This document shows positions 42,293 to 58,159 of a stretch of 64,000 nucleotides of DNA, piece after piece. The first letter of the stretch is position 1. The number at the start of each line of letters is the position of its first letter. The notes under the pieces were generated by a model, which saw nothing but the letters and a program-made list of their open reading frames with translations, had not been told where the DNA came from and searched no databases. Made by a program: the position numbers and the translations under genes. The DNA is from a virus, in the IMG/VR virus record IMGVR_UViG_3300027733_000030, positions 96,001-160,000 of that record; one strand, given 5' to 3'.

Positions 42293-42455
42293 TTAAATCA
42301 ATCCATTCGGTACTATAGGAACTATCTGAATAAAACCTTTGTATAGTGACACTCTTGCAATGAGAACAATAATCATCGCGAACTAAACAGTCACTTTTGA
42401 AATCATAATATTCGCTAACTGTTTCAGTTTTTTTGTCACATCTAGGACAATTCAT
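42285..42455 (-). CDS. Small zinc-ribbon protein (56 aa, below the ORF-track cutoff)
   Basis: My translation: MNCPRCDKKTETVSEYYDFKSDCLVRDDYCSHCKSVTIQRFYSDSSYSTEWIDLNV*; overlaps both neighbours as in coupled genes. Confidence 0.65.
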   Translation of the reverse strand: MNCPRCDKKTETVSEYYDFKSDCLVRDDYCSHCKSVTIQRFYSDSSYSTEWIDLNV

Positions 42456-42855
42456 CCAAGGCTTTCATTAAACCTTTTTGCAGTTTGCCTGCGAGGTCTG
42501 CGTTCTGTGCCGCATTAAAAAAAATTCCAATTTCTCTAATTTCATCAGAGTTTAAATACGAAGATAATTTATATCTTGCGCCTTTGCATACTTCACAATA
42601 AGTTTCTTGGACTTCATTATAACAGATGCATTTTTCTATAATATCAAAAAATTCTAAAGACTGAGCTATTTCAAACCATTTGTTTTTAAATAACTTTTTA
42701 GTCTGTTCTTTATAGGCCCTCAATTTATGGGAATCACTTGATAATAATGTTCCCATATCTAAGGAATGTTTCATGAGATCATTAATACTTTTATATAAAA
42801 AATTAGCTAGCTGAAAATCACCATTAACATCTGTAAATTTTTTCCAATCATTCAT
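42442..42855 (-). CDS. Hypothetical protein with a CxC...CxxC motif
   Basis: 137 aa; CIC...CEVCKG. Confidence 0.6.
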   Translation of the reverse strand: MNDWKKFTDVNGDFQLANFLYKSINDLMKHSLDMGTLLSSDSHKLRAYKEQTKKLFKNKWFEIAQSLEFFDIIEKCICYNEVQETYCEVCKGARYKLSSYLNSDEIREIGIFFNAAQNADLAGKLQKGLMKALDELS

Positions 42856-42879
42856 AACATACTACATCTTTCTTTTTAA

Positions 42880-43158
42880 TTAAACGTATCTTCCAGACCC
42901 CTTAGGAGTAGACACTGGATTTATCGCACCGGCTCTTCTTTTATTAGCCATCATCATTCCTCCGACAGCTCCACCACCCATAGCGTACCTAGCACCCACT
43001 TGCATTTGTCTAGCTCTAATCATTTCATTATGACCTTTGCCAGCTAGTGCTGCTGCATTTTTTATTTTTTCTGCGCCTTTTGCTCCTGATCCCAGGTACT
43101 TTACAGCTCTTTCCGAATCCATCATTAAGGCTTTTCCTATAGTATTTTTCCAACCCAT
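42880..43158 (-). CDS. Small basic Gly/Ala-rich protein, paralog 3
   Basis: RQMQVGARYAMGG segment matches RQAQVGMRYAGG in the neighbour. Confidence 0.6.
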   Translation of the reverse strand: MGWKNTIGKALMMDSERAVKYLGSGAKGAEKIKNAAALAGKGHNEMIRARQMQVGARYAMGGGAVGGMMMANKRRAGAINPVSTPKGSGRYV

Positions 43159-43508
43159 TATGCGAACCTGCCTACGCCTCTACCGGTTTGCATCGGTCCA
43201 CGATATGATGTACGAGATTGATTAGAATTAGGTCTCATGGCCATTGCTCCGGCAATTCCAACTGCACCACCTGCGTATCTCATTCCAACTTGTGCTTGTC
43301 TTAGAGAAATAGTTGCTGCTTTATGTTTTGCAGCAAACTCAGCACTGTATCTAGCTGTACTAGCAGTTGTTGCCATCCTTTTTTCGGCCATTCTACCTAA
43401 TTTTCCAGCACCTCTTGATCCTCTTTCGATAAAAGCAGTAGCTCTTCCTACCCCCATACCTGGGACTCTTTCAGCTAGTCTACTAAATATTTCGCCATAA
43501 GCTGCCAT
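43158..43508 (-). CDS. Small basic Gly/Ala-rich protein, paralog 2
   Basis: 116 aa; cationic, with a hydrophobic C-terminal helix and a G.GR tail. Confidence 0.6.
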   Translation of the reverse strand: MAAYGEIFSRLAERVPGMGVGRATAFIERGSRGAGKLGRMAEKRMATTASTARYSAEFAAKHKAATISLRQAQVGMRYAGGAVGIAGAMAMRPNSNQSRTSYRGPMQTGRGVGRFA

Positions 43509-43510
43509 AA

Positions 43511-43798
43511 TTATCTCCCGTACATTCCGGTAGGTCTACCACCTGCAAATTTATCTGTACCACGACCCCTACGGCCCTTCATCGCATATCCTCCAAGAGA
43601 AGCAGCGCCTAAGCCCATAGCTCCAGCTCTTCCGGGATGCTTCATAGCGTACTGCGCCATTCTGCTATTTTTAGCAAAGGATCTAACTCCTGATGAGGCG
43701 CCTGAGGCTGCGTCAGTCATTCCCTTAGACGTCATTTTTGAAGCCTTTGCGTGATAAGTTTGCTTTAGCCAACCTGTTGGACTTTTTTTAAGTGGCAT
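43511..43798 (-). CDS. Small basic Gly/Ala-rich protein, paralog 1
   Basis: 95 aa, same architecture; GGAG RBS. Confidence 0.6.
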   Translation of the reverse strand: MPLKKSPTGWLKQTYHAKASKMTSKGMTDAASGASSGVRSFAKNSRMAQYAMKHPGRAGAMGLGAASLGGYAMKGRRGRGTDKFAGGRPTGMYGR

Positions 43799-43811
43799 AG
43801 TAATTCTCCTA

Positions 43812-45257
43812 TTAAGATGTTTGAGATCGTATTCTTTTTATTGGTTTTTGCATGTCAAAAGTAAAGCTTTTATTAACATAGTCGATATGGAATATAGTAC
43901 CTTTAGGTACGTTGCTATGCACAATTGTTTTCGCTAAAGGTGTTTCTATAACATCTCTTCTTACTTGAGCTATGCCACGAGCACCTTTGATGGTATCGAT
44001 TCCACGTTCAATGAGACCATCAATCACGTTATCAGTATAGGAGACAGAGATTCCCTTTTTGGAGAGCTTATCCGCAATCACAGACATCTCTAATTCAGCT
44101 ATCTTTTCGCAATCCTGTCGATTCAAGTGATTAAAAACAACTATTTTATCTATTCTATTAATAAACTCTGGTCTGAAATATTTATCAATCGCTTGATGGG
44201 TATTTCTTTCCACGATAGATCTAACTGGTATCTCTGAAGTCTGACGCTCAAAGACAATGCTTCTAGCAAATCCTGTTCCAGTAGAAATTAAATTATCAAC
44301 TGTTTTCTCATTGCCTAAATTGGTTGTCATGATAATGATTGTATTTCTAAAATCTACTGGTTCACCTTTATTATCTGTAACTATTCCCTCATCAAATATT
44401 CTCAAGAATGTATTCCAAATATCTTGATGTGCCTTTTCAACTTCATCTATTAAAACAACTGAGTAAGGATTTTTCTTAACTTGATTAGTTAACTGCCCGC
44501 CTTCGTCGTGACCGATGTAACCTGGAGGAGAACCTAATAGCTTTTGGTTCTCATGCTTATGCTGGAACTCTCCACAGTCCATTCTTACTATCTGAGAGTC
44601 GCCACCAAACATATAATTATTCAGCATGTTTGCTAAGTGTGTTTTTCCAACACCGGAAGAACCCGCAAATAAGAATACTCCTAATGGTCTATTGGAATCA
44701 TGCAAATCAGCCTGTGATCTAAATAAAGCTGAAACTATTTCTTCTATTGCCTGATCCTGACCTATCACATTTGATTTCAAGAATCCCTCTAATCCTAAAA
44801 ACTTTTGTTTTGGAATCTTTTTATTCTTTGGAATAACCTCTTTGACTGTTTTTCTTTTAACATTTCTTTGGGCTTCTTGTAAAAATTTCTTTACTTCATT
44901 AAGATCATAATCTTCATCCTCAGGAGAAATCTCTAATGGGGCAGTCGAATAAGCGATGCTCACCCAGTAATCGATATCTAAACCAGGATTAAGCATAACA
45001 CATCCTGCGTAGATTGCTTCGAGAGCTCTTTCTGCGGCTGTACGAGACATTGCGTTTAACGAAGACGCAACATCAGTATTTAAATTAAAAACTACATACT
45101 GTAAAACTTGCTTGCGAAGATCTTTGCTTTTTTTATGTTTAATGACAAATGCTTCTACATCTTCAGTGGGAATGATTTTAAATTTTACGTTAGCGTGCAA
45201 CTCGGGTACAAAGATTTGGTATATCTGCATTAGCAACTTCTTTCTTTTATCTTGCAC
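43812..45257 (-). CDS. ClpA/ClpB-family AAA+ ATPase with only the D2 module and a novel N-terminal domain
   Basis: VIGQDQAI, RPLGVFLFAGSSGVGKT, LLGSPPGYIG pore loop, VVLIDEVEKAH, FRPEFINRID. Confidence 0.9.
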   Translation of the reverse strand: MQDKRKKLLMQIYQIFVPELHANVKFKIIPTEDVEAFVIKHKKSKDLRKQVLQYVVFNLNTDVASSLNAMSRTAAERALEAIYAGCVMLNPGLDIDYWVSIAYSTAPLEISPEDEDYDLNEVKKFLQEAQRNVKRKTVKEVIPKNKKIPKQKFLGLEGFLKSNVIGQDQAIEEIVSALFRSQADLHDSNRPLGVFLFAGSSGVGKTHLANMLNNYMFGGDSQIVRMDCGEFQHKHENQKLLGSPPGYIGHDEGGQLTNQVKKNPYSVVLIDEVEKAHQDIWNTFLRIFDEGIVTDNKGEPVDFRNTIIIMTTNLGNEKTVDNLISTGTGFARSIVFERQTSEIPVRSIVERNTHQAIDKYFRPEFINRIDKIVVFNHLNRQDCEKIAELEMSVIADKLSKKGISVSYTDNVIDGLIERGIDTIKGARGIAQVRRDVIETPLAKTIVHSNVPKGTIFHIDYVNKSFTFDMQKPIKRIRSQTS

Positions 45258-45362
45258 ATATAAGTATATAGGATAATATTATTATATATTAACATATAAG
45301 AATATATTATTATATGTTAACATATAAGTATATAGTAAAGGGGGGAAGGGGGGAAGGGGGGG
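45258..45362. repeat. AT-rich direct repeats plus G6-AA-G6-AA-G7 at the strand switch (origin-like)
   Basis: TATTATTATAT(A/G)TTAACATATAAG twice and ATATAAGTATATAG twice, directly followed by three G tracts. Confidence 0.6.
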
Positions 45363-45557
45363 TTATGGCTAGCTTATCACACGAAATCAAGTCGTGTCTA
45401 GCCTCAGTCATTTTTCTTGTAATCTTCTATGCTAGGATGATCTTCTATGCACGGCCCTGCGAAAGACCAGTACTTAATTAGGTCAATTGGTCTATTAAAT
45501 CTTTTATTTAATAAGTACAACGCCAACTGAAATTCTTCTTTTTGTTGTTCTTGCGAC

Positions 45558-45586
45558 TTGCTCATTCAATCTCCTTAAGATATAAT
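45558..45586 (+). promoter_or_regulatory. Sigma70-type promoter
   Basis: TTGCTC-17 nt-TATAAT upstream of the 45609 ORF and recA. Confidence 0.6.
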
Positions 45587-45608
45587 ATATATATCAATTA
45601 TACCATTA

Positions 45609-45926
45609 TTGAAAGGTTATTACCAGGTGGAATACCCCCAGCATAACGAAACAAATTCTATTCCTAATAAAACACCAAAACCAGTGGACATCAAAGAAGT
45701 GAATCGCGCATTAATAGTCTTACGTGAAAACTCAATCTCAATGCTCGACTTAATCGAAAAAGATCTTTATGATTTTTATTCAACGGATGTAGAAGTTATC
45801 AAGTTTGTTGATAAAGAACTTATGAAAAAAATTGTTCAATTCAAGCAAGATGTCAAGAACATTGTTGTATACTCTAAGAACCTGCAGACGATGCATGAAG
45901 AACAAGGAAGATTATTCTATGACTGA
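45609..45926 (+). CDS. Hypothetical protein
   Basis: 105-aa ORF overlapping the recA start. Confidence 0.55.
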   Translation: MKGYYQVEYPQHNETNSIPNKTPKPVDIKEVNRALIVLRENSISMLDLIEKDLYDFYSTDVEVIKFVDKELMKKIVQFKQDVKNIVVYSKNLQTMHEEQGRLFYD

Positions 45927-46944
45927 TGAATTCGATATGGAGACTGGCGAGATTCTTATTCCCGCAGCTAAAAAAGTTATTGATAAAGAAGAATCAAAAG
46001 TATTAGAACTCGCAATCGCACAACTTCAACGTCAATACGGAGCTGGATCAGTCGTTAGACTCGGCTCAACTAATATCAAACCATGGGACTCAATCTCCAC
46101 TGGAGCACTTACTTTGGATAGTGCACTTGGAATTGGTGGTTTCCCGCGCGGGCGCGTAGTAGAAATCTATGGACCTGAGTCATCAGGTAAGTCTACTCTC
46201 GCTCTAGCAACAGTAGCCAAGGCCCAGCAGATGGGCCTCACGTGCGCCTACATCGACGCTGAGCATGCTTTAGACCCAGTCTACATGCAAGCCGTAGGAA
46301 TCGATCTAGACAACCTTCTACTGGCTCAACCTGATTATGGCGAGCAAGGCTTCGACATTGCTGACAGACTCCTGCGCACAGGGGAAATTGGCGTCATCGT
46401 CATTGACTCAGTTGCAGCATTAGTTCCTAAAGCTGAGCTCGATGGCGAAATGGAACAAGCTCACATGGGCTTGCAGGCCCGTATGATGGCTAAAGCTATG
46501 CGTAAGCTTACTGGACTCGCTGCCCAGCACAACACTCTTATTATATTCATTAACCAGCTCCGCAACAAAATTGGAATCATGTTTGGTAACCCAGAGACTA
46601 CTCCTGGTGGAATGTCATTGAAGTTCTATGCTTCAGTCCGAATTGACGTCCGCAAAAAAGAAGATCTTAAGGACAAGGCCGGAAATCCAGTTGGCGTCAA
46701 AGTCAAAGCTAAGGTTATTAAGAATAAGATGGCACCCCCAATGAAAATCGTAGAGTTCGACATCATCTATGCTCAGGGTATCGACGAGTACGGATGTATC
46801 TTTGACATCGGAATCGACAAGGGTATCTTTACCCAAAAGGGCGCATGGGTCTACTATAATGGCGAGAACTTTGCCCAAGGTAGAGATAACGCTATTGAGA
46901 AGTTAAAGGCTTCTCCTGATATTGTAGGTGTGATCAAAGGCTAA
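45919..46944 (+). CDS. recA: RecA recombinase
   Basis: Likely start ATG 45919. GGFPRGRVVEIYGPESSGKST, IDAEHALDP, VIDSVAALVPKAE, FINQLR, GNPETTPGG..LKFYASVR. Confidence 0.97.
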   Translation: MTDEFDMETGEILIPAAKKVIDKEESKVLELAIAQLQRQYGAGSVVRLGSTNIKPWDSISTGALTLDSALGIGGFPRGRVVEIYGPESSGKSTLALATVAKAQQMGLTCAYIDAEHALDPVYMQAVGIDLDNLLLAQPDYGEQGFDIADRLLRTGEIGVIVIDSVAALVPKAELDGEMEQAHMGLQARMMAKAMRKLTGLAAQHNTLIIFINQLRNKIGIMFGNPETTPGGMSLKFYASVRIDVRKKEDLKDKAGNPVGVKVKAKVIKNKMAPPMKIVEFDIIYAQGIDEYGCIFDIGIDKGIFTQKGAWVYYNGENFAQGRDNAIEKLKASPDIVGVIKG

Positions 46945-47150
46945 TGAGTTTTATTCCAATATCTTGCGAGGACTGCAGCTTCCCGCCTAACTTTATTGTT
47001 CTTGAATTAAAAGACAAGGTAAATATCCCATACTACTCCATCAAGTGCCGTGACTGTGGTGACTGCTGGGACGAACCGAATGAAAATTTTTTTGAAAATA
47101 CACAGCCTTCTCTTTACGACGGAAATTTTTTTGAGAACGATGACAAATAG
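46944..47150 (+). CDS. Small zinc-ribbon protein
   Basis: CEDC...CRDC. Confidence 0.6.
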   Translation: MSFIPISCEDCSFPPNFIVLELKDKVNIPYYSIKCRDCGDCWDEPNENFFENTQPSLYDGNFFENDDK

Positions 47151-47243
47151 CTTACGCCTCTATCTCGAGTTCTCGCGTTTGTTTGCCGAACTGAAATAAC
47201 CAGTACTATTACAGTATCTCATCTTTAAGAAAGAATGCTGTAG

Positions 47244-47534
47244 ATGGAATTTATACGTAGAATATTAGAGTTCTTTTCAGGTTCGTCCATGAAGCGAAAT
47301 GGCAACATGATCAACTTTGTCTATGACCTAGAAGATGACAACACTCAGCGTGTCGTCACCATCCATGCCGATCCTAATGGGTTCATGATCTTTACCATCT
47401 TCTCAGTCGAAGAATGGCAGATGATTGAAAGTATTGGCGAACTATCGGAACGTGATGTTGAAGACATCGTACGCGAAATATCAGAAGACGAAAGCCTGAC
47501 AACAATCACCATCGATCCCACGGAGTTTGAGTAG
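47244..47534 (+). CDS. Acidic hypothetical protein
   Basis: 96-aa ORF preceded by a TACTAT motif. Confidence 0.6.
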   Translation: MEFIRRILEFFSGSSMKRNGNMINFVYDLEDDNTQRVVTIHADPNGFMIFTIFSVEEWQMIESIGELSERDVEDIVREISEDESLTTITIDPTEFE

Positions 47535-47562
47535 ATTTCGCCCGGAATAAATAAGATATATA

Positions 47563-47603
47563 CAAAAGAGGTGCTACCCCCTAAAGGGTAACACCTCTTT
47601 TTG
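47563..47603. terminator. Bidirectional intrinsic terminator
   Basis: CAAAAGAGGTGCTACCC...GGGTAACACCTCTTTTTG between convergent genes. Confidence 0.8.
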
Positions 47604-47622
47604 TTTTTATCACAGGGTGCTA

Positions 47623-47841
47623 TTAGTAATCATAACCGGATTCGTAGCCTAGCTCTTCCCACACTTGGTTTCCATATGAGGAACCATAGTCCTTTACAGT
47701 CATTGCAAAGTTTGTATTAGCCATGCCTCCGAAGGGGTTTACCCATTGGAAACAGTCAGGGCATCTTGTATTGGCTCCTGAGAGGTCTTCATTGACAATA
47801 TATTCTGTACCACAGTGTGGGCAGTCCATAAATGATTTCAT
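47623..47841 (-). CDS. Zinc-ribbon protein
   Basis: CPHC...CPDC; AAAGGA RBS. Confidence 0.65.
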   Translation of the reverse strand: MKSFMDCPHCGTEYIVNEDLSGANTRCPDCFQWVNPFGGMANTNFAMTVKDYGSSYGNQVWEELGYESGYDY

Positions 47842-48330
47842 GATTGTTCCTTTGTGATTGTAAGCATGGGATGCTGTGTGTGAATCATTCCCTATTGGGA
47901 ACGTCTTGAACTATATCTACTACACGGCGTCTCTGTCAACCTATGTTAGAAAATATTTCAAATTTTTTGGGGCGAATCTCTATATGGGAAAAATTATTAG
48001 GGAAAAATTTTTGGACTGAAATGGTTTTCAGGTGTTGCGGGCTTTTCTAATCTCGAGGGTCATTTGTTTCTAATCTCGAGGATATATAAACATATATAAA
48101 CTTATTAAGGTAAAAACTAGGGAAAATTTATGGGGTGGTGATAGTGAGTATATGTGTGTACCTTAATTTTTTAACGTGCCCACCCCCCCATGGGGTCATA
48201 TGCTCTAGTAATAAACGACAATAAGCGGTCGTCCATACCCCTACGTATGGTGCAGGTATCCAGCATAAAAGGACAGCATAGGTGAATACGTTATCGCCGT
48301 CAATGAAACGTAGTATCAAAGGAGAATATA

Positions 48331-48630
48331 ATGATTACATCAATGTTTGATGTTATAGGAAAGTATGCAGTAGATAGTGAGGGGAACATGTTACCCATGC
48401 GTAAGGAGACAGTAGCTATGTACTGCGCACACACGGGTAATGAAATCTGGGTTAAGTCAACCCTACCTGGTGCAGACAGTACAGACGTACAACGGTTCGG
48501 ACATGTGCATACTAACACTGCATGGTTCAACAGCCAGTACAATAACCGCATGGTACTCATAGTTAGTGTCATGAAGTATGACTATAACATGGGTATTTGG
48601 TACTGGTACAACGAGGTACACAGCGCTTAG
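48331..48630 (+). CDS. Hypothetical protein
   Basis: AAAGGAG RBS; 99 aa; followed by the first hairpin repeat. Confidence 0.6.
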   Translation: MITSMFDVIGKYAVDSEGNMLPMRKETVAMYCAHTGNEIWVKSTLPGADSTDVQRFGHVHTNTAWFNSQYNNRMVLIVSVMKYDYNMGIWYWYNEVHSA

Positions 48631-48858
48631 TTATTATACATACCTAGTAGGGTAGGTATGGAGAAGGTGGTTCCTCAGGATCTTATGATTCTGGGGAACT
48701 TCCTTTTTTGAGGATAGGTCATTGTCCTTTAGTAAGGTTCGCCATGGGCCAACGGGTTCACCTCCCGCCAAAAGGTAGACATGGAAGATGGTTTTACCAT
48801 TCGTAATAATCACGTTCAATACGTTAAGTTGAACAAAGGCATGTTTCTAGGAGGAATC

Positions 48859-49128
48859 ATGTTGTCATTCATCAGTAAGAAGGTCACATTCATTGTGGCT
48901 GCAATTGTTGCAGTGTTGTTGGTATTGGAGCCAACAACCGACTTGACAATGGCAGCATTGCGCTTGCCAAGCAAGTTTGTTTGGATGCTCTTGGGCCTCC
49001 TCTTCAGTATCGTTAACTGGGGAATGCTGATCCTTATCGCCATTGGTTTTGGCATTGGATTCATCATTAAGACCCGGACCATTGACTGGTCTGAAGTTAA
49101 GGGTTTCTTCAACAAAGAAGAAGCCTAA
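48859..49128 (+). CDS. Small membrane protein
   Basis: GGAGG RBS before ATG 48859; two to three hydrophobic helices. Confidence 0.65.
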   Translation: MLSFISKKVTFIVAAIVAVLLVLEPTTDLTMAALRLPSKFVWMLLGLLFSIVNWGMLILIAIGFGIGFIIKTRTIDWSEVKGFFNKEEA

Positions 49129-49252
49129 TTAAAAGGGGGTGATGGTCCACCTCTTTAATAAAGAAGAAGGTTGTTTCCCCTGGGGCATTTGCCTTGGGGG
49201 AAACTTCTTTTTTTGAGGATAGATCAATGGGATCAGTCCAAGAAAGGAAACC

Positions 49253-49498
49253 ATGGAAAGAGGTACGTACACGTATCGGACACTCAGGGGTAATGACCTG
49301 GTGTTCCAGGTTGGAGGAAGCATGACGTATTGTCGTGTTTTCAGCCAACAAGGTGAGCTGGTCCACTACTATGGATCAGTTACACCTCCCAAGGTCAGTG
49401 AACAGGATGGTCAAACCATCGTCCTGTTTGAGGACTTTGAGGATGGATCGCGACGCCTTCATGGTGTTGCAATCCGTCCAGTCATTACCTTAGCGTAG
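49253..49498 (+). CDS. Hypothetical protein
   Basis: AAAGGA RBS; between repeat copies 2 and 3. Confidence 0.65.
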   Translation: MERGTYTYRTLRGNDLVFQVGGSMTYCRVFSQQGELVHYYGSVTPPKVSEQDGQTIVLFEDFEDGSRRLHGVAIRPVITLA

Positions 49499-49647
49499 TG
49501 GCTAGACAAAGGGTAGCGTCTTACCTTGCATACTAGCAAAGACGCACCATAGAAGAAGTTGTTCCCGGGGATTTCGGTCCTCGGGAACTTCTTTTTTTGA
49601 GGATAGGGGAAAGGCCCCTAGCTCATTCTCTTGAAAGGGGAATTGTT

Positions 49648-49791
49648 ATGAGTCAAACATACGAATGTGCAGAAGGAATGTGTCAGGATGTAGTGTCCTG
49701 GTCACTATCCGGGGTGCTTGCAGCAGCGGGCATCGTAATCATCACTGTGTTCGTTGTTACGGTGATCATCGGAGAAATCCGACGCAAATAG
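49648..49791 (+). CDS. Single-pass membrane peptide
   Basis: AAAGGGG RBS, MSQTYECAEGMC..., one hydrophobic helix and an RRK tail. Confidence 0.55.
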   Translation: MSQTYECAEGMCQDVVSWSLSGVLAAAGIVIITVFVVTVIIGEIRRK

Positions 49792-49922
49792 GAAAGTAAG
49801 TTAGTAGAAGGTTTGTTCCCGGGGATTTCGGTCCTCGGGAACTTCCTTTTTTTGGCATAGGCGCTAGGCCTCTAGCTACAGTCAACTAACACTGTTGTAA
49901 AAAGTTAGTAAGAAAGGTAATC

Positions 49923-50126
49923 ATGTCAAAAGGACCATGGGAGGAAAACTCCATGTGGACTCCGGATCTCCAAGATTCGGAGCTTGCTACGGATGTAGCC
50001 CATACATGTTTGAGGTGTCAAGAACTGGAAGCTGAATTAGAAAAGTGGAAGGACACGGCGCGTACATGGATGTGGACAGCTGCAGACGCATCAGGTGTGG
50101 ACATATCGGATGCGTTAGACAATTGA
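49923..50126 (+). CDS. Hypothetical protein
   Basis: AAAGG RBS; CLRCQELEAELEKWK coiled coil. Confidence 0.6.
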   Translation: MSKGPWEENSMWTPDLQDSELATDVAHTCLRCQELEAELEKWKDTARTWMWTAADASGVDISDALDN

Positions 50127-50274
50127 GCAATGCTCACACCAAGGAGTAGTGATCCTATACATACTTATATAATTCACTAAAGAAGGAGGTTCTCGGGAGA
50201 TATTTCCCGGGAACTTCCTTTTTTTGAGGATAGACCGCCGGTCAATCTCACCAGCTGATGGAGGTCAGCAAACT

Positions 50275-50451
50275 ATGAAACATAAACCAACTCTAGGATA
50301 TTTTAATATCCTCGATTGGGAGATGGATAAGATTGCATGCAAGTCATGCAGTGCTGTCTTGGTCTCTCAAGGAAGTCAAATATGTGACTCATTTATAGGA
50401 AAGGATCTTATCTGTCCTATTTGCGAGTTGGACATTGACGACGCACAATAG
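50275..50451 (+). CDS. Small zinc-finger protein
   Basis: GGAGG RBS; CKSC...CPIC. Confidence 0.6.
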   Translation: MKHKPTLGYFNILDWEMDKIACKSCSAVLVSQGSQICDSFIGKDLICPICELDIDDAQ

Positions 50452-50788
50452 TAATAGTCAATGAATAAGTAAGTAAAAGAAGGTCGTCCCTGGGGAGAAA
50501 TCCCTGGGGACTTCCTTTTTTTGCCGATAGATCGTTGGCCCTTAAACAGGAGGTAGAAATGTAATGAATATCACCGTTGTTGAAACGGTGGGATATTCCA
50601 TTGTTTATGGAGAATCCTACCATTTAGTAATAATAGACCCTTCTCTACCCCCCGCCTAGGAGTATTGCTTACTGACCTTAGATTCCTTTTTTTGACGATA
50701 GGCCATTGGCCTTTAGTCACACGTAAGGTTCCACGCCAGGGCCAACAGTATGTGCTCTGTAGAAAAGCACACAGAAAGGGAGGGAGAG

Positions 50789-53188
50789 ATGTCATATTTC
50801 CATGGCATTGTGGTCCTCGCTGGAAGGTGGCTTCGGCTGCTGACTGGTGCAGACCATGTCCCGGGTACCACCGTCAAAGAAGAGTTTCAGGGAGGACAAT
50901 ATGTCCCCGCGTTCCTGGAGCACTTCTGGGCAGGTCGGTACCGCGTCGAGGTGCGTAAGCTGTTCAGCCGTAAGGTTGGATCGTTGGAAAGCGCACCTGC
51001 CGTCACCAATAAGGAGCTGTTCTCTAGCGAAGTAATTCGTTGGAGCAACTCCTCGGACCAGTACATGTTGCGCATTAAGGGCAACAATGGCTGGCTTGCT
51101 AGCTTCAAGGAAATCGGTCTTCTGATCGCTAACTCCAAGAAGATGAGCAAGAGGTTAGTAGAACTCGTGCGCATGTCGTGCATGTGGCTCTACATACCCG
51201 AGGACAAAGCCCTTGAGGTTGACGTCATCGATCACAAAGCGTTGGGCATGCCTGACGAATATGTGGACGGTGCGACGTTCATCACCCGTGGGCTCGCAAT
51301 CAAGTGCGTGAAGTCGAATACTTCGGCAACACGTGCTTGGCGGGCTCGGATGATCTGGAACATTCGCAATGGCAGTCTTGTCGTTGTGCAGTTCCGGATG
51401 CTCTGCGCGCTTGGAGAGATCAAAGGCAATGCCGTGATCACTCCTCGTAAGCAGATGCAAGGCTACGAAGTTCGGACGTTTGCGCCGAATATCAAGGCTG
51501 AGATCCGAACCACTGGGTGGCAATGGGTCACATTGGAGCCGTCTTACGGGACGATTCCAGTGAAGTCTGACGATCTGACACATTCCATTTACTGGGATGT
51601 TAAGGGTCTGTATGACCACGACTCACTCCTGGCATGCCTGGAATCCTCTTTGAAGCAATTCAAGGAGGACTTGGTGGCTGGCAAACGCTCTGAATGGATG
51701 GAGAAACTCGCTGAAAGCAGTGGGTCTATCCTACATGAAGAGTCGGAGGTAAAGTATGCAAAGGATCGTGGCCTAGTTGGCAGGATTCAGCATGCGGTTG
51801 CTCAACTTAGTAAGTTGGGTGTACCTCTACACGCCAGTCAAACCCTGATGTTCCTCTCGGTCAATGGTTTGCGAAAGCAGCTGTTGGGCGACAATCGTCA
51901 GGGTGAGGTGTGGATGGACAAGTCTCGTCACTGGTTTCCAGTGTCGTGGGCTTATGCCGCTCACATCTATACCAAGGAAGTCCTCGAAATCGGTGGGTTT
52001 AAGATGCCCACTGGTAACGAAGGCTTCTTCCATGAGGCTACCCACAGCTTCGTGGTACCTGGCCAGTTCTTGAAGGATAACTTTGAGAACTGGGGAGGTC
52101 CTGACTTGGATGATACTGTAAAGGTGCATGTGCGCCGAGTATCAGACAAACAGGGCAAGGTCAAGTTGATGGGAATTGTCATGCGCAATCCGAATGATTT
52201 CGGTGAGTATGCGATGATTCCACTCAACGAAACCGGACCAATATTCCACGACTATGGTGCTGAGCCCCCGCTGGTGGATCTGCAGGAACTATCTAGTAAG
52301 GTTCCGCAGTTCACAAAGCTGAAGAAGCATCTGAACATCGGATCTCTTCCGGCGATCACTAATCCACGTAAGCGTGGTGACGTGTTCTCGCTGGAGGATG
52401 AGTCGGCTGTTCGGCTTGCATCACAGGCTTTTCCACCAGGAATGGGCGGAACGGTCATCCCAAAGATGATCTGGTACGCTCAGTTCGGGAAGCCCATTGA
52501 GGAGTTGGTTGCAACTAACGAAGACATCGTTGATGTTCTTCAGCAGGGGCAAGCTTCTCTGGAGGATGTGCAGTTGATCAAGCAATGGATCGACAACACA
52601 TTCACCACAATGGGCGAAAAGCTCAACTGGGAAATGGACCGCTTCTGGTTCATGACCCGGATGCCAGCACCGTTGGCAGAGTTATGGGAAACCTCATCCG
52701 AGGAAGTATCGCCTTGGGTCACACTCCATAAGGAGCGTGAGAACCTTGTGCGTCAGTACATTAAGGAAATGACGGATTGGCTGAATAGTCAAGTCGTTAT
52801 GCCCGAAGTGCTGGCAAACATCAACTGGACTCCAGAAGAGCGCGCAAACGCTTGGAGGGAACTCCAGAAGATCAAAGAGGTTCATCAAGCAGCTCGAAAC
52901 AGTAGTCTCACCTGGTGTGATTACTTCGTAGAGCTGATGACCAAGAGCGATGAAGAGCATGGTAAAGAACGTACTGATCGTAAGATCTTGCGTTTGGCAC
53001 ACCAAGCCATCCTCGCGAAGGCTCAAACGCCAGGAGCAAACCATGATCAGTGGCTGTTCTCGTTCAACGCTAAGAGCGAAATGCAACCGTACATGTTCTA
53101 TGTGCGTGCTCTCAAGCGTGTTCAAGACGGAACCTATTCATGGTTGCCCGCATCAGCAAGTCCGATTATTGAGGACATAGGGAGCTGA
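50789..53188 (+). CDS. Putative single-subunit two-barrel (YonO / cellular-RdRP-like) RNA polymerase with an atypical catalytic loop
   Basis: Likely start ATG 50789 after GGGAGGGAG (799 aa). YVDGATFITRGLA resembles the RdRP DG.G.IS..LA motif; QFRMLCALGEIKG resembles Q.R..G.KG; SFVVPG...WGGPDLDD resembles VVFP...SG.DLDGD; MRNP follows. Confidence 0.65.
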   Translation: MSYFHGIVVLAGRWLRLLTGADHVPGTTVKEEFQGGQYVPAFLEHFWAGRYRVEVRKLFSRKVGSLESAPAVTNKELFSSEVIRWSNSSDQYMLRIKGNNGWLASFKEIGLLIANSKKMSKRLVELVRMSCMWLYIPEDKALEVDVIDHKALGMPDEYVDGATFITRGLAIKCVKSNTSATRAWRARMIWNIRNGSLVVVQFRMLCALGEIKGNAVITPRKQMQGYEVRTFAPNIKAEIRTTGWQWVTLEPSYGTIPVKSDDLTHSIYWDVKGLYDHDSLLACLESSLKQFKEDLVAGKRSEWMEKLAESSGSILHEESEVKYAKDRGLVGRIQHAVAQLSKLGVPLHASQTLMFLSVNGLRKQLLGDNRQGEVWMDKSRHWFPVSWAYAAHIYTKEVLEIGGFKMPTGNEGFFHEATHSFVVPGQFLKDNFENWGGPDLDDTVKVHVRRVSDKQGKVKLMGIVMRNPNDFGEYAMIPLNETGPIFHDYGAEPPLVDLQELSSKVPQFTKLKKHLNIGSLPAITNPRKRGDVFSLEDESAVRLASQAFPPGMGGTVIPKMIWYAQFGKPIEELVATNEDIVDVLQQGQASLEDVQLIKQWIDNTFTTMGEKLNWEMDRFWFMTRMPAPLAELWETSSEEVSPWVTLHKERENLVRQYIKEMTDWLNSQVVMPEVLANINWTPEERANAWRELQKIKEVHQAARNSSLTWCDYFVELMTKSDEEHGKERTDRKILRLAHQAILAKAQTPGANHDQWLFSFNAKSEMQPYMFYVRALKRVQDGTYSWLPASASPIIEDIGS

Positions 53189-53549
53189 CGCAGTACTCCT
53201 TGAGATAGGAGAACATCCTAGTTAGGTTTACATAACTAACTGGAAGAAGGATGCCCCTGGGATTCAGTAGAAATACTGTTTCCTGGGGGCTACCCTTATA
53301 AAATTAATTTGCTATGAACGAGGTAGCTCTCGTCTGCGACATTGAAAGCAGTACCTGTGGGATTAAAAAGACCGCTAAATGAGGAGGTTGTTGGGAAGAA
53401 ATTCCTGGCAACCTCCTTTTTTTGAGGATAGTTCACTAGCCTCAAGCGCAGAACCTGAGCGCTCTATAAAGTATGGGTGACGCTGCAGGAGCTAAATCCT
53501 GACAGGAATTCCAACCTTGACAAATGGAATCAGCCAAGGAGGCACAAAA

Positions 53550-53918
53550 ATGGAAGCAATCAAGACAGCAAAGGATGGCCGTCAGTACACGGTCATCAAT
53601 GGCAAAGCAGTCTTCATCAAGGGTTCAAAGCCCGTGGTGAAAGCTGCTGTCGAGATGGCACCGGCACCAACGCCAGCACAGACCAAGGGCATTGCCTGCG
53701 GTAATTGCAGTGGCAAGCACAGCACTGTTCAAGAAGTGCGCGCATGCTTTGGCGTGACCGTCGTCAACACCAAGTGGACAGCTCGTCCTACTGCAGTTAT
53801 TACTGACCTTGACAAGAAAGTCATGGTTACCTGTGGTTGGGGCAAGGCAAGCCACAAGGTCGAGATGACCAAGGCCGATGCCATTGCATTCCGCAACACC
53901 TGCGAGCAGCATCGCTGA
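53550..53918 (+). CDS. Hypothetical protein with a CxxC-x2-H-x7-C motif
   Basis: AAGGAGG RBS before ATG 53550; CGNCSGKHSTVQEVRAC. Confidence 0.65.
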   Translation: MEAIKTAKDGRQYTVINGKAVFIKGSKPVVKAAVEMAPAPTPAQTKGIACGNCSGKHSTVQEVRACFGVTVVNTKWTARPTAVITDLDKKVMVTCGWGKASHKVEMTKADAIAFRNTCEQHR

Positions 53919-53920
53919 TC

Positions 53921-54151
53921 ATGGCTTACAACCATCACAATCAGCACTGCGGTCTCAGGGCAGATGGTTGCGAAGGTTTCATCTTCAAGGGCAATGGGCG
54001 ATTCGTCGCTTACCCCTACAAGATGCTCCTTTGCGCCAGCTGTTACGAGACATGGTTGCAGCGGAATTCCGAAGGTAAGAAGAAGGCGTCTGACAAGCGC
54101 AATCTCAAGAACCTTCGAGACAGCCAGCCCACACTCTTCGACCAGGAGTGA
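53921..54151 (+). CDS. Small Cys/His-rich protein
   Basis: ATG 53921 directly after the previous stop; CGLRADGC...CASC. Confidence 0.55.
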   Translation: MAYNHHNQHCGLRADGCEGFIFKGNGRFVAYPYKMLLCASCYETWLQRNSEGKKKASDKRNLKNLRDSQPTLFDQE

Positions 54152-54245
54152 GCTGAAGAAGACTGAAGTCCCACTACACATCAAGTGTAGGAGGGACTTC
54201 TTTCTTTGAGGATAGACTATTCGGGTCAGTCCACAAACGAAAGGA

Positions 54246-55010
54246 ATGATCATGTACAAACCATTCAAAGAAGGGTGTGATCACGAAATGACAGAACCAT
54301 CTGCTATTGGAGGCAAAAACATAGGCCTTGAATGGGAGATAGTTAATCATTGGAGCCACTGCACAAAATGCTGGGGCACCAAAGTGACGCAAGAAATGCT
54401 GTGGATCGGAGAGGGTCCAGATCCCCGAAATGAGGAGGAAAGTGCTATGGACAAACCATTGTATAAGGTAGCCTTTACAGGTCATCGCCCCAACAAAATT
54501 GGGGGATACAATGCAAAGACACCAATGCGTGTTGCTGTTACTGAAGCCATTAACAACGCTCTTGCACGAGCAGTGGCCAAGTATGGTGAGACACATGAAG
54601 TGGTTGTCATCAGTGGAGGCGCTCTTGGCGTTGATACCGATGCAGCACGGGAGGCTCATAAGATGGGTCTTCGGTTCATGATTGCAGCACCTTGCCGAAA
54701 TCAGGACATTAAATGGCCTGCTGAAAGCAAGTTGACCTACAAGAAGATGTGCGGATTTGCAGATGCAGATCTAGCTCGTACTCTTGCTAGCGACGGTGAA
54801 ACTATTGAAGACGGTGTTATATACGTCTACAATGGTGAATACACCACGGCAAAGGTCATGCAGGACAGGAACATCTGGATGGTAGATCACGCTGACAGTG
54901 TGGTTGCTATTTGGGATGGCACGTCTGGTGGCACGGGAAACTGTGTGGGTTATGCTCGCAACAAGCAAAAGCCCATGGTTGTAATCAACCCCACTAAGCT
55001 GCTTAGTTAA
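54246..55010 (+). CDS. SLOG-superfamily protein (YspA/DUF1273-like)
   Basis: VAFTGHRP, ISGGALGVD, RN.WMVDHAD.VVAIWDG.SGGT.NCV.YA. An alternative start at ATG 54447 has a GAGGAGG RBS. Confidence 0.85.
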   Translation: MIMYKPFKEGCDHEMTEPSAIGGKNIGLEWEIVNHWSHCTKCWGTKVTQEMLWIGEGPDPRNEEESAMDKPLYKVAFTGHRPNKIGGYNAKTPMRVAVTEAINNALARAVAKYGETHEVVVISGGALGVDTDAAREAHKMGLRFMIAAPCRNQDIKWPAESKLTYKKMCGFADADLARTLASDGETIEDGVIYVYNGEYTTAKVMQDRNIWMVDHADSVVAIWDGTSGGTGNCVGYARNKQKPMVVINPTKLLS

Positions 55011-55326
55011 TAGTTTAGTAAGTTATCGAAAGGTTGTTCCCGGGGAGAAATCCTCGGGGACTTCCTTTTTTATCATAGACCATTACACTTAAATTCTTTT
55101 TTTATGATAGGCACTTATTCTAAATCCCTCCGTGGATTGGGATAGGTTCCTAGTCCAGTTCTCTTTGCCTGTATTCTAAATCCCTCTGGGAGCATGCTGG
55201 CAAAAAGAAGGGGTTGTTTCCTTCCATAAAAAGAAGGGAGCAGTCCCCCCAGAGCATCTTCTGGGTAATAAAAAAGAAGGGTGACAATCCCGTCATCCGT
55301 CCAACGCATCAAAAGGAGAATATACC

Positions 55327-55725
55327 ATGCGTTTCATAGTTGCTAAACTCGGCATTGTTTCCGAGAAAACTGGAAAGACTCAAGTTGTCTTTCTGCCCGA
55401 AAACCAAGATGCCCCTGTTTGGGTGTCTGCTTGGTTGGCTACCTCGTTCGTTGAAGAGCAGGTTGTGCCCGGCGTCGAAATCCTCGCGGAATCGGCGTCG
55501 CTAACCAAGTTGGAAACGTCGTACGAAAAGGACGGCGTTGTTGTGGGGTTGAAGTCCCCTCGTCGTTCGGTCATCTTCGGTGGTACAGTTTCGGCTGTTG
55601 CCCCAGAAGGTAACCCGTTGCCCGAAGTCGTCTATGCTAAGTCTGAATCTACTTCGGCTTACGTTCAGGCGTTTCGTGCTAAGCAGGCAATGAAGTCTGC
55701 AGATTTGGGTACTGACTCGTTCTGA
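55327..55725 (+). CDS. Hypothetical protein (beta-rich, possibly OB-fold)
   Basis: AAAGGAG RBS; strongly biased codons; followed by a terminator. Confidence 0.65.
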   Translation: MRFIVAKLGIVSEKTGKTQVVFLPENQDAPVWVSAWLATSFVEEQVVPGVEILAESASLTKLETSYEKDGVVVGLKSPRRSVIFGGTVSAVAPEGNPLPEVVYAKSESTSAYVQAFRAKQAMKSADLGTDSF

Positions 55726-55751
55726 GTCTTGTGCCGTACTTTGTCCGTTTC

Positions 55752-55800
55752 GCGGGCTCACCTCAGAGTAATATCTGGGGTGGGCTCGCCTTATTTTTTA
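55752..55800 (+). terminator. Intrinsic terminator
   Basis: GCGGGCTCACCTCAGA/TCTGGGGTGGGCTCGC 16-bp stem with G-U pairs, then TTATTTTTT. Confidence 0.75.
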
Positions 55801-56010
55801 ACGCCCTGTCTCAGGACCCCTCGCTTCGCTCGGGATCGCTGAGCCAGTGCGGGCTTCGCCAATATGGTGAAGTCATATCTTTTTTTAAAATAGAACCTAG
55901 ATCCTAGGTATCTATTCTAAATTTTTAAAATAGAATAGTAGATTAATCTATTGTTCAAACAAAAAAGAAGGGGAGTAATCCCACCAACAAAAGCCCTAAG
56001 GAGGCACACA

Positions 56011-56337
56011 ATGCACACATTAGGAATCATCCTAATCGGAATGGCCTTAGGTATAGCTATGCTGTATCTAACTAATTTCATTGTCAGTAAAGCAAATGCT
56101 CGTCTTAACTATGGACAGAAGGTCCGTTTTGAAAGCGAAGTCATTGGACATATTTCAGTTTGTCGTTATCACGGCGTCAAGAAGTATTTCTTCACAACAA
56201 AGAACTTTGGGCCATTAAACCCTACTTCTTTCTATGAACGTGAAGATGCAATCTCAGCATGTCGCAAAGCTCATCTTGATGAAATGCTCAAAGAACAAGC
56301 TGAACGTCCTAAGCAAACATCGTTTCCAAGAGCGTAA
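56011..56337 (+). CDS. Hypothetical protein with an N-terminal transmembrane helix
   Basis: AAGGAGG RBS before ATG 56011. Confidence 0.65.
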   Translation: MHTLGIILIGMALGIAMLYLTNFIVSKANARLNYGQKVRFESEVIGHISVCRYHGVKKYFFTTKNFGPLNPTSFYEREDAISACRKAHLDEMLKEQAERPKQTSFPRA

Positions 56338-56567
56338 ATTCTTGGTTAGCCTTCTTGCGGGCTATTCCTCTCAGAAGGAATCAAGGGATTGGATCATATG
56401 ATCCTCTCCCAGCAACCAATCTTCCCTCCCAGGTTGAGCGTCCTTGCCATATACCCCCCTTTCGTATGGTAAGGATGCTCCCTGAGGGAGTTTATAGATC
56501 TTTGGTAATAACTTTTTTTTAAAAAAATAGATCTCTTCTAAAAAGAAGGGTTAGTAAAAGGAGAAAA

Positions 56568-56750
56568 ATGAATAAAATTACACTAAAAGTAATGATGGCA
56601 GTATATGCCGGATCATTCCTTGCTGGATTCATCTACGCATTCGGCACAGAAATGCAAAAACAAAAGATGGAAATCAAACATACTCCATCAATTGAATTCC
56701 AAAATCTAGTCAACCACTACAACAACAAACAGAAAGAGAAAGTGTCATGA
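56568..56750 (+). CDS. Small membrane protein
   Basis: AAAGGAG RBS; one hydrophobic helix. Confidence 0.6.
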   Translation: MNKITLKVMMAVYAGSFLAGFIYAFGTEMQKQKMEIKHTPSIEFQNLVNHYNNKQKEKVS

Positions 56751-56950
56751 AAATCGTACAAACAGCCGGAAAACTCTTCGGCAAAACCGTAGCCGTCAGT
56801 AAGAATGCGCCTTCAAAGACTGTCAAAGTCAGCAAAGCTGCATCCTCAAAGACCAAGAAGGCTCTTGTAAATGCAAAAGATGACTTGGTCGCCGGCTTCA
56901 ATCAAGGTGCACAACGGACTTCAGATTCTGACGTCATTGACATCAAGTAA
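56747..56950 (+). CDS. Small basic protein
   Basis: Lys/Ala/Ser-rich; ATGA overlap with the previous gene; followed by a terminator hairpin. Confidence 0.6.
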   Translation: MKIVQTAGKLFGKTVAVSKNAPSKTVKVSKAASSKTKKALVNAKDDLVAGFNQGAQRTSDSDVIDIK

Positions 56951-57122
56951 TAAAACCTTTGTTGGGAGTATAGCAACATCGCTATGCTCTCAACAAAAAA
57001 ATTTACAATAGTATTCTAAAACTATTGTGAACATAGAAAAAGAAGGGACTTGACAAATGTCATATCCCAAATAATCAAAAGTAATTACATCCCCATTAAA
57101 CACCTAACAGAAAGATATACTT

Positions 57123-58154
57123 ATGAGTATCCTTAGTCAATTCGGACTTAGTTCCGACGATTTCAGCATTGTTGCTGATAGTCCAGAGTTATTTGAGTCC
57201 AACGGCAAAACTACCAAGCTCATTGCGGGCAAAGAAGTTAGCTACAATGTCACTATTGCTGGAAAGAAAATTCCTGCATATGTCACACTTGAAAGCGCAA
57301 AGTTGACTCGTCTCTCGCTCCTTGAGCAACAGACTCGCAACGGTCGTGCCTATTGGCTCGCTACTGGCATGTTCAAGCCTGTCAAACTCAACATCGATCT
57401 TTTGATTGATGGTTCGCGCATGAACATCGTTGATCTTCTTCACACCATTGTGAAAGAAGCATCTGGTAAGCAAGATCATTCTCGTGAGCAGTTTGTTCGT
57501 GACCTTCGTAACATGGGCATGAACTTCGCTGACGGAATGCCTTTGTTCTTCCAACAATTCGGTGCAAGCTTCGAAGCATTTGAATCTGCTGTTACAGCAT
57601 TCAAGCAAGCAGGAGCAACTGATGACCTAGCACGTATGGTCGGCAAGGGTATCAACCCAGGTCGTATTCGTGCTGCTTACGCTCATGAACAAGGTGTTGA
57701 AGTCACCTCGTTCGAACTCGGTACAGTTGATCGTACCAAGTCTGTGCGTAATCAGGGCTTTATCGATCTCGGAGATGCTGTCTTTGAACAGTTCCTTCGC
57801 GTCGTCAAGTTCACCAAAGAAGCAAATGTTCTCAAGAATGAAATCGAAAAGAACATTTCTACTTGGTCACAGGCACAAATCAAGTCTGCTCAAGAGCAAA
57901 TCAAGAAGTTTGAGGATATGGCTAAACAATATACCTCGAACTGGGCAGGTGCGCAACAGCGTATCGTCCAACTGCCTAATGGCAAACTTGAGAACAAAGA
58001 TCAGTTTGATCCAGTAAACGCCCCTTGTGGTCGTTTCACTATGCTCGTCGACAACAATCCTGTTGAAGTCGATCTGTGGACTAACTCAGCTACTGCAAAT
58101 ACATCAACAGTTGGAACTGAAGTTTCAATTCTTGATGGCAAAACTGGGTTCTAA
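57123..58154 (+). CDS. Hypothetical protein (343 aa)
   Basis: Long ORF with strongly biased codons; family not recognised. Confidence 0.8.
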   Translation: MSILSQFGLSSDDFSIVADSPELFESNGKTTKLIAGKEVSYNVTIAGKKIPAYVTLESAKLTRLSLLEQQTRNGRAYWLATGMFKPVKLNIDLLIDGSRMNIVDLLHTIVKEASGKQDHSREQFVRDLRNMGMNFADGMPLFFQQFGASFEAFESAVTAFKQAGATDDLARMVGKGINPGRIRAAYAHEQGVEVTSFELGTVDRTKSVRNQGFIDLGDAVFEQFLRVVKFTKEANVLKNEIEKNISTWSQAQIKSAQEQIKKFEDMAKQYTSNWAGAQQRIVQLPNGKLENKDQFDPVNAPCGRFTMLVDNNPVEVDLWTNSATANTSTVGTEVSILDGKTGF

Positions 58155-58159
58155 TAACT

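Follow-up and report, generated by a model that had tools for sequence, protein, structure and literature searches.

How does a phage express a run of small genes when nearly every one of them is followed by what resembles a strong transcription terminator? The question is raised by an array of hairpin, T-run and ATAG elements in the IMG/VR virus record IMGVR_UViG_3300027733_000030, of which we analysed positions 96,001 to 160,000 (64,000 nucleotides (nt), hereafter the window). The window is phage DNA, with a T4-type terminase, recA, a ClpB-like ATPase and a long minus-strand run of virion genes. In this uncultured lake phage of ~200 kb, about ten small ORFan genes and one phage RNA polymerase gene, here called nvRNAP1, are fenced by a putative stop/restart signal. 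We lean towards an answer in which each element is a fused intrinsic-type terminator and non-sigma70 promoter, with the candidate virion polymerase of the tail module as its probable reader.

An initial annotation of this DNA had described such an array around the polymerase, and the array proved to be real: the window holds nine full units and six tails without the family hairpin, all on the + strand. The full units have the G of ATAG at 48717, 49222, 49606, 49860, 50233, 50530, 53431, 54215 and 55078. Four tails are hairpin-less (50701, 55110, 55933 and 56525), that at 50701 directly preceding the nvRNAP1 gene, and two follow hairpins unrelated to the family (55893 and 59321); the tails that had been placed at about 55885, 55925, 56525 and 59320 were located at 55893, 55933, 56525 and 59321. 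Units and tails together are confined to the + strand between 48.6 and 59.3 kb, and from 48.6 to 55.1 kb a unit is present after every small + strand gene. The tail sequence GAGGATAG, already credited with six copies, occurs exactly six times in the window. The pattern TTTTTTNNNNATAG has 11 matches against 0.48 expected, on the + strand only and within 48.7-59.3 kb, and the looser pattern TTTTTNNNNNTAG has 22 matches in the window against 6.8 expected. The elements and the polymerase gene are as follows (ORF, open reading frame; aa, amino acids; bp, base pairs).

48658..48735, + strand: unit 1, with hairpin, T6, GAGG, ATAG and a small hairpin (R1, 56 bits; fold -35 kcal/mol); it closes the upstream operon that starts with recA, and an 89-aa ORF (48859-49128) comes next.
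49161..49240, + strand: unit 2, with a 14-bp inner stem, T7, GAGGATAG and GATC-AATGG-GATC; an 81-aa ORF (49253-49498) comes next.
49549..49624, + strand: unit 3, with T7, GAGGATAG and GGGG-AAAGG-CCCC (R1, 68 bits); a 47-aa ORF comes next.
49803..49878, + strand: unit 4, with a stem identical to that of unit 3, T7 and GGC-ATAG (R1, 56 bits); a 67-aa ORF (49923-50126) comes next.
50177..50251, + strand: unit 5, with a continuous stem, T7, GAGGATAG and GACC-GCC-GGTC (R1, 68 bits); a 58-aa CxxC ORF comes next.
50474..50548, + strand: unit 6, with T7 and GCCG-ATAG (R1, 75 bits); an ATG-TAA mini-ORF and a 21-codon ORF come next.
50680..50715, + strand: hairpin-less tail, TTCC-T7-GACG-ATAG and then GGCC-ATT-GGCC, 88 nt 5' of the polymerase start codon.
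50789..53188, + strand: nvRNAP1, a candidate single-chain two-barrel RNA polymerase of 799 aa (AlphaFold (AF2) and Foldseek).
53245..53292, + strand: family-like hairpin without T-run or ATAG, 3' of the polymerase gene (direct reading).
53375..53449, + strand: unit 7, with T7 and GAGGATAG (R1, 67 bits); a two-gene cassette (53552-54151) comes next.
54156..54233, + strand: unit 8, with a different stem, an interrupted T-run (TTCTTTCTTT) and GAGGATAG (R1, 29 bits); a YpsA/SLOG ORF (54253-55010) comes next.
55024..55110, + strand: unit 9, with T6 and ATC-ATAG, and 32 nt further on a hairpin-less tail (T7, ATG-ATAG) (R1, 65 bits).
55852..55933, + strand: AT-rich-spacer class, with an unrelated hairpin, T7, AAA-ATAG and a small hairpin (55893), and a second tail (55933).
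56505..56550, + strand: T8-A6-ATAG tail with a longer spacer, then the hairpin CTCTTCT-AAAA-AGAAGGG (direct reading).
59247..59321, + strand: unrelated 17-bp hairpin, T7 and ACAA-ATAG (R1, 23 bits).

What is a unit made of? It opens with an A/G-rich tract (AAAGAAGG) and a 2x2 internal loop; next come an inner helix, GC-rich, 11-14 bp long and closed by a 4-nt loop, then ACTTCC, T6-7, a spacer of four variable bases (GAGG in six copies) and ATAG. Two details of the initial annotation had to be revised. The supposed unpaired bulge of 2-4 nt is a 2x2 internal loop, with TT or TC opposite the TT of ACTTCC, and GAAGG does not pair with CTTC(C) as proposed; it pairs instead with CCTTT on the T-run side, using G-U. 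The stems of 11-14 bp, extended by an outer GG:CC helix and followed by T6-7, all lie on the coding strand past ORF ends, with a stability of -26 to -35 kcal/mol and U6-7 directly next. A GC-rich stem-loop and U-run on the coding strand after stop codons is the sequence of an intrinsic terminator, and among the terminator-like sites of the window (47 against 15.1 expected) the array units rank highest.

The stems differ from copy to copy, and the earlier claim that their pairing is nevertheless kept is borne out. A MAFFT alignment of 32 units was out of structural register, with only 7 pairs recovered by RNAalifold, and was superseded by a covariance model built on 18 same-length copies with the structure supplied by hand. 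This model, of the kind that the initial annotation had called for, finds the array block in the window and further copies in relatives; in the window it matches nothing else save a weak site at 26385-26419 (E 0.17), and in the tail-gene locus it has no match. Among 40 distinct matches, 95.8% of cells are paired, a percentage biased towards the model to which the alignment was fitted, and 10 of 18 pairs show compensatory change; these values were reached by 0 of 500 shuffles and slid controls were far lower. G-U pairs, which had been said to be valid on the plus strand only, make up 17% of the pairs of 66 distinct copies, taken both from the window and from relatives. In 65 of these 66 the + strand RNA folds more stably than the reverse complement, with a mean difference of 9.3 kcal/mol. 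Covariation and G-U strand bias together argue that selection acts on the + strand RNA. The second small hairpin, reported as frequent at the G of ATAG, was counted as a stem of at least 4 bp from the A or G of TAG, and is found in 77 of 134 copies, where shuffles give 30 +/- 5. An Rfam search of 45-64 kb returned only two tRNAs above threshold, its matches at the units being sub-threshold chance matches.

If the hairpin and U-run stop transcription, what does the tail do? Hairpin-less copies retain 7-8 T in their T-run (50701 and 55110 in the window; 119,748 and 116,452 in a complete related genome of 210,302 bp, G008), which suggests that the T-run is part of the TAG motif as well as of the terminator. 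Its spacing to TAG is fixed and A stands at -3 in 93% of copies; in 90 of 134 copies a Shine-Dalgarno sequence and start codon lie no more than 80 nt further on, the median distance being 40 nt. Since strong terminators in series would otherwise silence the genes downstream, a restart signal is a reasonable expectation here. The tail is not of the bacterial sigma70 promoter type: a sigma70 scan of the window gave 42 sites against 37.6 expected, which is no enrichment, and zero sites at the units. Neither did the alignment of unit copies contain a conserved hexamer at +15 to +20, and TANNNT is not enriched downstream of the tail (24 copies against 30 expected). The suggestion of fused terminator/re-initiation or RNA-processing units read by a phage enzyme thus finds support in the terminator score, the fixed-spacing non-sigma70 tail, its median of 40 nt to Shine-Dalgarno and start codon, a two-barrel polymerase ORF and conservation. 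Two candidate explanations of the tail were rejected. A sigma70 promoter with TTGAGG as its -35 would have no -10 element, and the TTG is absent in other clades; TAG as the stop codon of upstream ORFs is discarded because those ORFs already end before the hairpin. Literature searches with the motif strings returned them only as unrelated primers.

Is the architecture peculiar to this phage? Profile searches retrieved it in 28 related viral loci, with nvRNAP1 identity from 94% down to 26%. Hairpin, T-rich run, short spacer and TAG are common to all clades, a small hairpin frequently coming next, and the consensus changes from CTTCC-T7-GAGG-ATAG in the window clade to GGTTTTTCTTTT-ATGG-GTAG at 43-56% nvRNAP1 identity, T8-ATGA-CTAG at 36% and T7-9-ACGG-GTAG at 26%. 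The unpaired element and TAG, on whose conservation in related phages the initial annotation had staked its proposal beforehand, are therefore both conserved, and the proposal was not refuted. Hairpin-bearing copies in relatives lie on the gene strand in 80 cases and on the opposite strand in 10. A close relative, G001, whose polymerase is 94% identical, carries 14 units within 5.7 kb and no other of that form in the remainder of its 134 kb; units are also present in contigs whose polymerases are 90%, 66%, 59% and 58% identical. In G008 the 19 copies are all on the same strand and occupy 115,974-126,013, next to nvRNAP1 on its upstream side; the rest of that genome holds no copy, and a control pattern has no match in it. 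Across 32 loci, 17 have a T-run/TAG tail at most 400 nt upstream of the polymerase gene. A megablast of 48.6-55.2 kb against GenBank phages gave no match.

Which enzyme could read such a signal? Three candidate polymerases are encoded by the phage family itself. The first is the "polymerase" of the initial annotation, and its ORF at 50789-53188 is indeed predicted to have a two-barrel RNA polymerase fold, by which nvRNAP1 is a candidate single-chain two-barrel RNA polymerase. Its AlphaFold model, from a 30-sequence alignment, has a pLDDT of 87.7 and Foldseek matches to QDE-1 (E 6e-7), plant RDR2, P32 gp64 (7.5e-4), P74 gp62 and P23-45 gp96. Sequence searches against Pfam, PHROG and PDB gave no match; more than 100 homologues of ~780 aa exist, all unnamed, and GGPDLDD, NSKKMSKR and RNPNDFGE are the invariant motifs. 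The second, nvRNAP2, is a paralogue of ~860 aa (hhalign 98.8%), lying 13-17 kb downstream of nvRNAP1. The third is a tail-module protein of 1356-1691 aa in relatives, which has GGFDLDD in 5 of 6 homologues and occurs with this motif in 5 of 5 tested genomes; in G001 its ORF of 1622 aa and the stop of the 2052-aa ORF before it overlap. The profile of the tail-module protein can be aligned to the catalytic core of nvRNAP1 (hhalign probability 73%, E 3e-5), and the single-sequence comparison of the two is weak (probability 1.7%). Beside these genes, the stretch at 50554-50630, between unit 6 and the polymerase tail, holds an ATG-TAA mini-ORF and a 21-codon ORF, is ~90% conserved in L001 and L004, and may be a leader controlling the polymerase gene.

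Two relatives bear on the choice among these candidates. In G002 ten ATAG units form a contiguous array (95,984-106,841), and the tail-module protein and nvRNAP2 are present, but nvRNAP1 was not found; G003 has units and no nvRNAP1 in its assembled part. The T-run/TAG signal thus appears independent of nvRNAP1, which is probably not its reader. Moreover, the nvRNAP1 gene itself lies behind the signal, so that the reader must pre-exist nvRNAP1 and be a virion or a host enzyme. As the form of the motif argues against the host enzyme, the virion enzyme is favoured. That nvRNAP1 is missing where array, tail-module protein and 860-aa paralogue are all retained also indicates that the polymerase gene behaves as an optional cassette. 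In G002, at 92,000-123,000 (L044, L045), PcfJ-like genes occupy the array in place of nvRNAP1.

The mechanism that we propose has a stop, a restart and an exchange. The long GC-rich hairpin and U-run would end the upstream message as an intrinsic-type terminator, and the A/G-rich tract 5' of the hairpin could pair with the U-tail, so that the 3' end would be paired throughout. A promoter of fixed geometry would then be formed by that T-run (-15 to -8), the spacer of 4 nt and the invariant TAG (-2 to +1), which has an A before it in the window clade. Its reader would be a phage RNA polymerase present at the start of infection, the candidate virion polymerase and not nvRNAP1. RNA would start at the G of TAG or a few bases before it, and most messages would thus open with the small hairpin; Shine-Dalgarno sequence and start codon would follow ~40 nt after the start. 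The predicted products are monocistronic mRNAs with a hairpin at both ends, covering about ten small ORFan genes and nvRNAP1. Finally, units share 60-80 nt of sequence and hence may be points at which cassettes are gained, lost or swapped between related phages.

Several points weigh against this reading. Termination, initiation, start site and reading enzyme are what we infer, and for the start site and the initiation of the 5' ends this counts against it. The second hairpin is present in only 57% of copies, and the reading assumes that two-barrel phage polymerases stop at such hairpins. The virion-polymerase label of the tail-module protein is confirmed only in part; the protein is a candidate, resting on one conserved motif and a moderate profile match, and the AF2 model of a fragment of it (6-sequence alignment) has a pLDDT of 40 and is unusable. 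The lack of nvRNAP1 is strong only for the syntenic stretch of G002, which is 85% complete, and the assembly of G003 is interrupted at the array. The reader may instead be a host polymerase that is modified by the phage or carries an unusual sigma factor.

If nvRNAP1 does not read the T-run/TAG signal, what does it read? A second motif lies downstream of its gene:

55203..60068, + strand only: seven copies of AAAAGAAGGG, at 55203, 55229, 55272, 55963, 56541, 57038 and 60059 (0.19 expected).

Three relatives, G006, G007 and G008, have 8, 5 and 6 copies of AAAAGAAGGG, always between nvRNAP1 and nvRNAP2 and on the gene strand (59,085-72,356, 38,710-51,197 and 101,047-112,715), and G002 and G003 have one chance-level match each. 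Being repeated where nvRNAP1 is present and at chance level where it is missing, AAAAGAAGGG is a candidate promoter that nvRNAP1 may read. We tentatively extend this, as a possibility that we would not yet call probable, to a relay of three polymerases with private promoters: the virion enzyme would read T-run-N4-TAG and lead to nvRNAP1, which through AAAAGAAGGG would lead to nvRNAP2. In such a relay a single T-tract would be both terminator U-tract and upstream promoter element, and nvRNAP1 with its promoter block would form an optional, exchangeable module, some members of the family being without both. A further motif, ATTCTAAA, occurs on the + strand of the window at 55117, 55173, 55914 and 57013, between tails and AAAAGAAGGG sites, and also in L004, L006, L007 and G002. 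G-rich hairpins of the type G8-CCCGCGAAGCG-G7 lie just 3' of TAG tails at 59330-59357 and 60082-60109 in the window, and likewise in L007.

Do cassettes move at the units? Between the window and L001 both flanks are 92-93% identical, and between these flanks lie 6 cassettes in the window and 13 in L001; the blocks of homology begin and end at units. Single cassettes recur at other positions in L004, and the small cassette ORFs have no Pfam family. The 140-nt 5' leader at 48718-48858, which ends in GGAGGAATCATG, is reused before different genes in L001 (4239-4383 and 6570-6697), which suggests that leaders are exchanged together with units. In the cassette ORF at 54253-55010 a Cys-rich N-terminal part is joined to a YpsA/SLOG domain (Pfam PF06908, E 2e-12). 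With an internal Shine-Dalgarno sequence and ATG at 54447, the SLOG part is possibly also made alone, as in L004.

How well do other explanations account for these observations? The main rival is RNA processing, which we regard as unlikely: a long transcript would ignore the hairpins, and an endoribonuclease would cut the U-run/GAGGAUAG segment between two hairpins that protect the new ends. It would suit a conserved segment that is unpaired between two structures, the RNA-strand selection and the enriched 5' hairpins, and it has a precedent in T7 early mRNAs, which RNase III cuts to single-gene pieces at intergenic hairpins. However, copies without hairpin keep the full T-run and the spacing, and a hairpin with U7 is a complete terminator signal, more than a protective stem. 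Two invariant blocks at fixed spacing around a variable spacer are typical of a protein-DNA site, and the published analogue, P23-45, has mapped primary starts.

Less probable again is that the tails are early promoters of the host RNA polymerase, recognised through an unusual host sigma or a specificity factor supplied by the phage. Early phage genes are usually transcribed by the host, as happens with the PeSLs of T4-type phages, and the TTGAGG, TTGACG and TTGACA of the window clade resemble a -35 hexamer; T4 gp55 recognises a lone -10-like box. Against this, the tails have no -10 element at any fixed distance, other clades show T-run-ATGG-GTAG without TTG, the sigma70 scan is empty at the units, and the phage family has three polymerase candidates of its own.

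It is also improbable, in our judgement, that the tails are promoters for nvRNAP1 or for its 860-aa paralogue and the array a middle-gene or auto-amplifying regulon. The array does surround the nvRNAP1 gene, and the P23-45 gp64 promoter (GGTCTAGGGGC, with TATAGG variants) likewise has an invariant TAG followed by G/C. Yet the array persists in G002 without nvRNAP1, the scheme is circular since the gene of nvRNAP1 itself depends on the signal, and the gene of the paralogue sits behind the AAAAGAAGGG block where nvRNAP1 is present, AAAAGAAGGG tracking nvRNAP1. An earlier idea, which we mention as a lead only, was a unit combining a P23-45-like virion promoter (TTCCTTT) with a gp64-like promoter (TAGRCC).

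We think it very improbable that the units are terminators or attenuators only, the TAG box and small hairpin being part of a leader or stop signal and a single upstream promoter feeding a decreasing gradient. The terminator is the best-supported part of the unit, and a 26-nt motif is common to seven conserved P23-45 terminators, but this explanation would put six to nine strong terminators in series before the polymerase gene, and it has to contend with hairpin-less tails and with a constant distance from tail to start codon. Last, recombination sites of a site-specific cassette system of the integron attC kind, which imperfect hairpins with unpaired bases around single-gene cassettes of varying content between relatives might suggest, are scarcely credible and were dropped, as the consensus has no GTTRRRY core and the neighbouring ORFs scanned no integrase, as the T-run and terminator geometry would go unexplained, and as homologous exchange between 60-80-nt repeats is sufficient, as in PeSLs.

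Two other stretches of the window deserve mention. The first, at 58160-58850, is ORF-free over ~700 nt, and its part at 58302-58756 shares 92% identity with a contig of only 58% polymerase identity; at its end is a tRNA-like T-arm with acceptor (GGTTCGATTCC ... CTCCACC), although ARAGORN and Rfam did not call a tRNA in it, and it may be a structured RNA gene. The second, at 45256-45365 in the divergent intergenic region before recA, has overlapping AT-rich repeats (ACATATAAGTATATA...) and then three AAGGGGGG runs, and may be an origin or promoter region.

Why does the array matter? Phage single-chain two-barrel RNA polymerases (YonO, crAss-like gp66, P23-45 gp64 and gp96) are recent discoveries, and to our knowledge promoters are known for very few of them. 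The array offers more than 130 natural variants of a candidate promoter-terminator unit, across polymerases 26% to 100% identical, and AAAAGAAGGG is a second motif that appears and disappears with one polymerase gene; together they provide templates for in vitro transcription and a natural specificity series. The units would also exemplify a regulatory element that insulates small accessory genes for shuffling between phages. If the T-run truly serves termination and initiation, it would be a signal of unusual economy and might serve synthetic circuits as a compact part.

How does the array compare with known systems? T7-type promoters are short and conserved, with an AT-rich upstream part and ATA just before the G start. 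The tails resemble them in being a short conserved motif with an AT-rich upstream part and ATA before G, accompanied by a terminator hairpin and U-run; in contrast to the T7 system, nvRNAP1 has no Pfam RNA_pol match and a predicted two-barrel fold, and the motif is shorter with a variable spacer. As with T7 RNase III sites, intergenic hairpins would split an early region into single-gene RNAs, but those sites are cut in a double-stranded stem and have no U-run or restart, whereas here the conserved block is single-stranded and the T-run is kept without the hairpin.

The closest parallel in polymerase type is the Thermus phage P23-45, which has a virion RNA polymerase (gp96) and a non-virion one (gp64), both two-barrel (PMC10770324). 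Its pre-early block, where the non-virion polymerase gene also lies, shows mapped starts alternating with stops at intervals of ~300 bp (PMC10770324). The promoter of its virion polymerase, TTATTCCTTTA, is short, nearly invariant and pyrimidine-rich and ends at the start site; its terminators are conserved hairpins with T6, and one stop (340) and the next start (346) overlap (PMC10770324). The present array likewise places a non-virion two-barrel polymerase gene, as far as fold prediction tells, in a small-gene block with hairpin-T terminators and short-motif tails. However, the motif is (C)TTC(C)-T7-N4-ATAG and not TTATTCCTTTA, only the TTCCTTT core being similar, and almost every copy joins terminator and putative promoter at one fixed distance, apparently with one T-run for both. 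Further differences are the hairpin at the 5' end, the second non-virion polymerase, paralogous to the first, and DxDD rather than DxDxD as the metal loop. The protein similarity to P23-45 is visible at fold level only, and the array is known from sequence alone.

In organisation, the array recalls the PeSLs of T4-type phages, cassettes combining terminator and promoter that border single ORFan genes of hyperplastic regions and mediate modular shuffling, with strong, host-read promoters of the sigma70 type (PMC2839356, PMC4122927). Both have a composite stem-loop and (candidate) promoter in the intergenic space of small genes, and both show gain, loss and exchange of cassettes at the motifs between close relatives; unlike PeSLs, our array has no sigma70 -10 or -35 pattern. 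It thus combines the logic of P23-45 units with that of PeSLs, in a motif that is different, with a geometry that is fused and fixed and a hairpin added at the 5' end.

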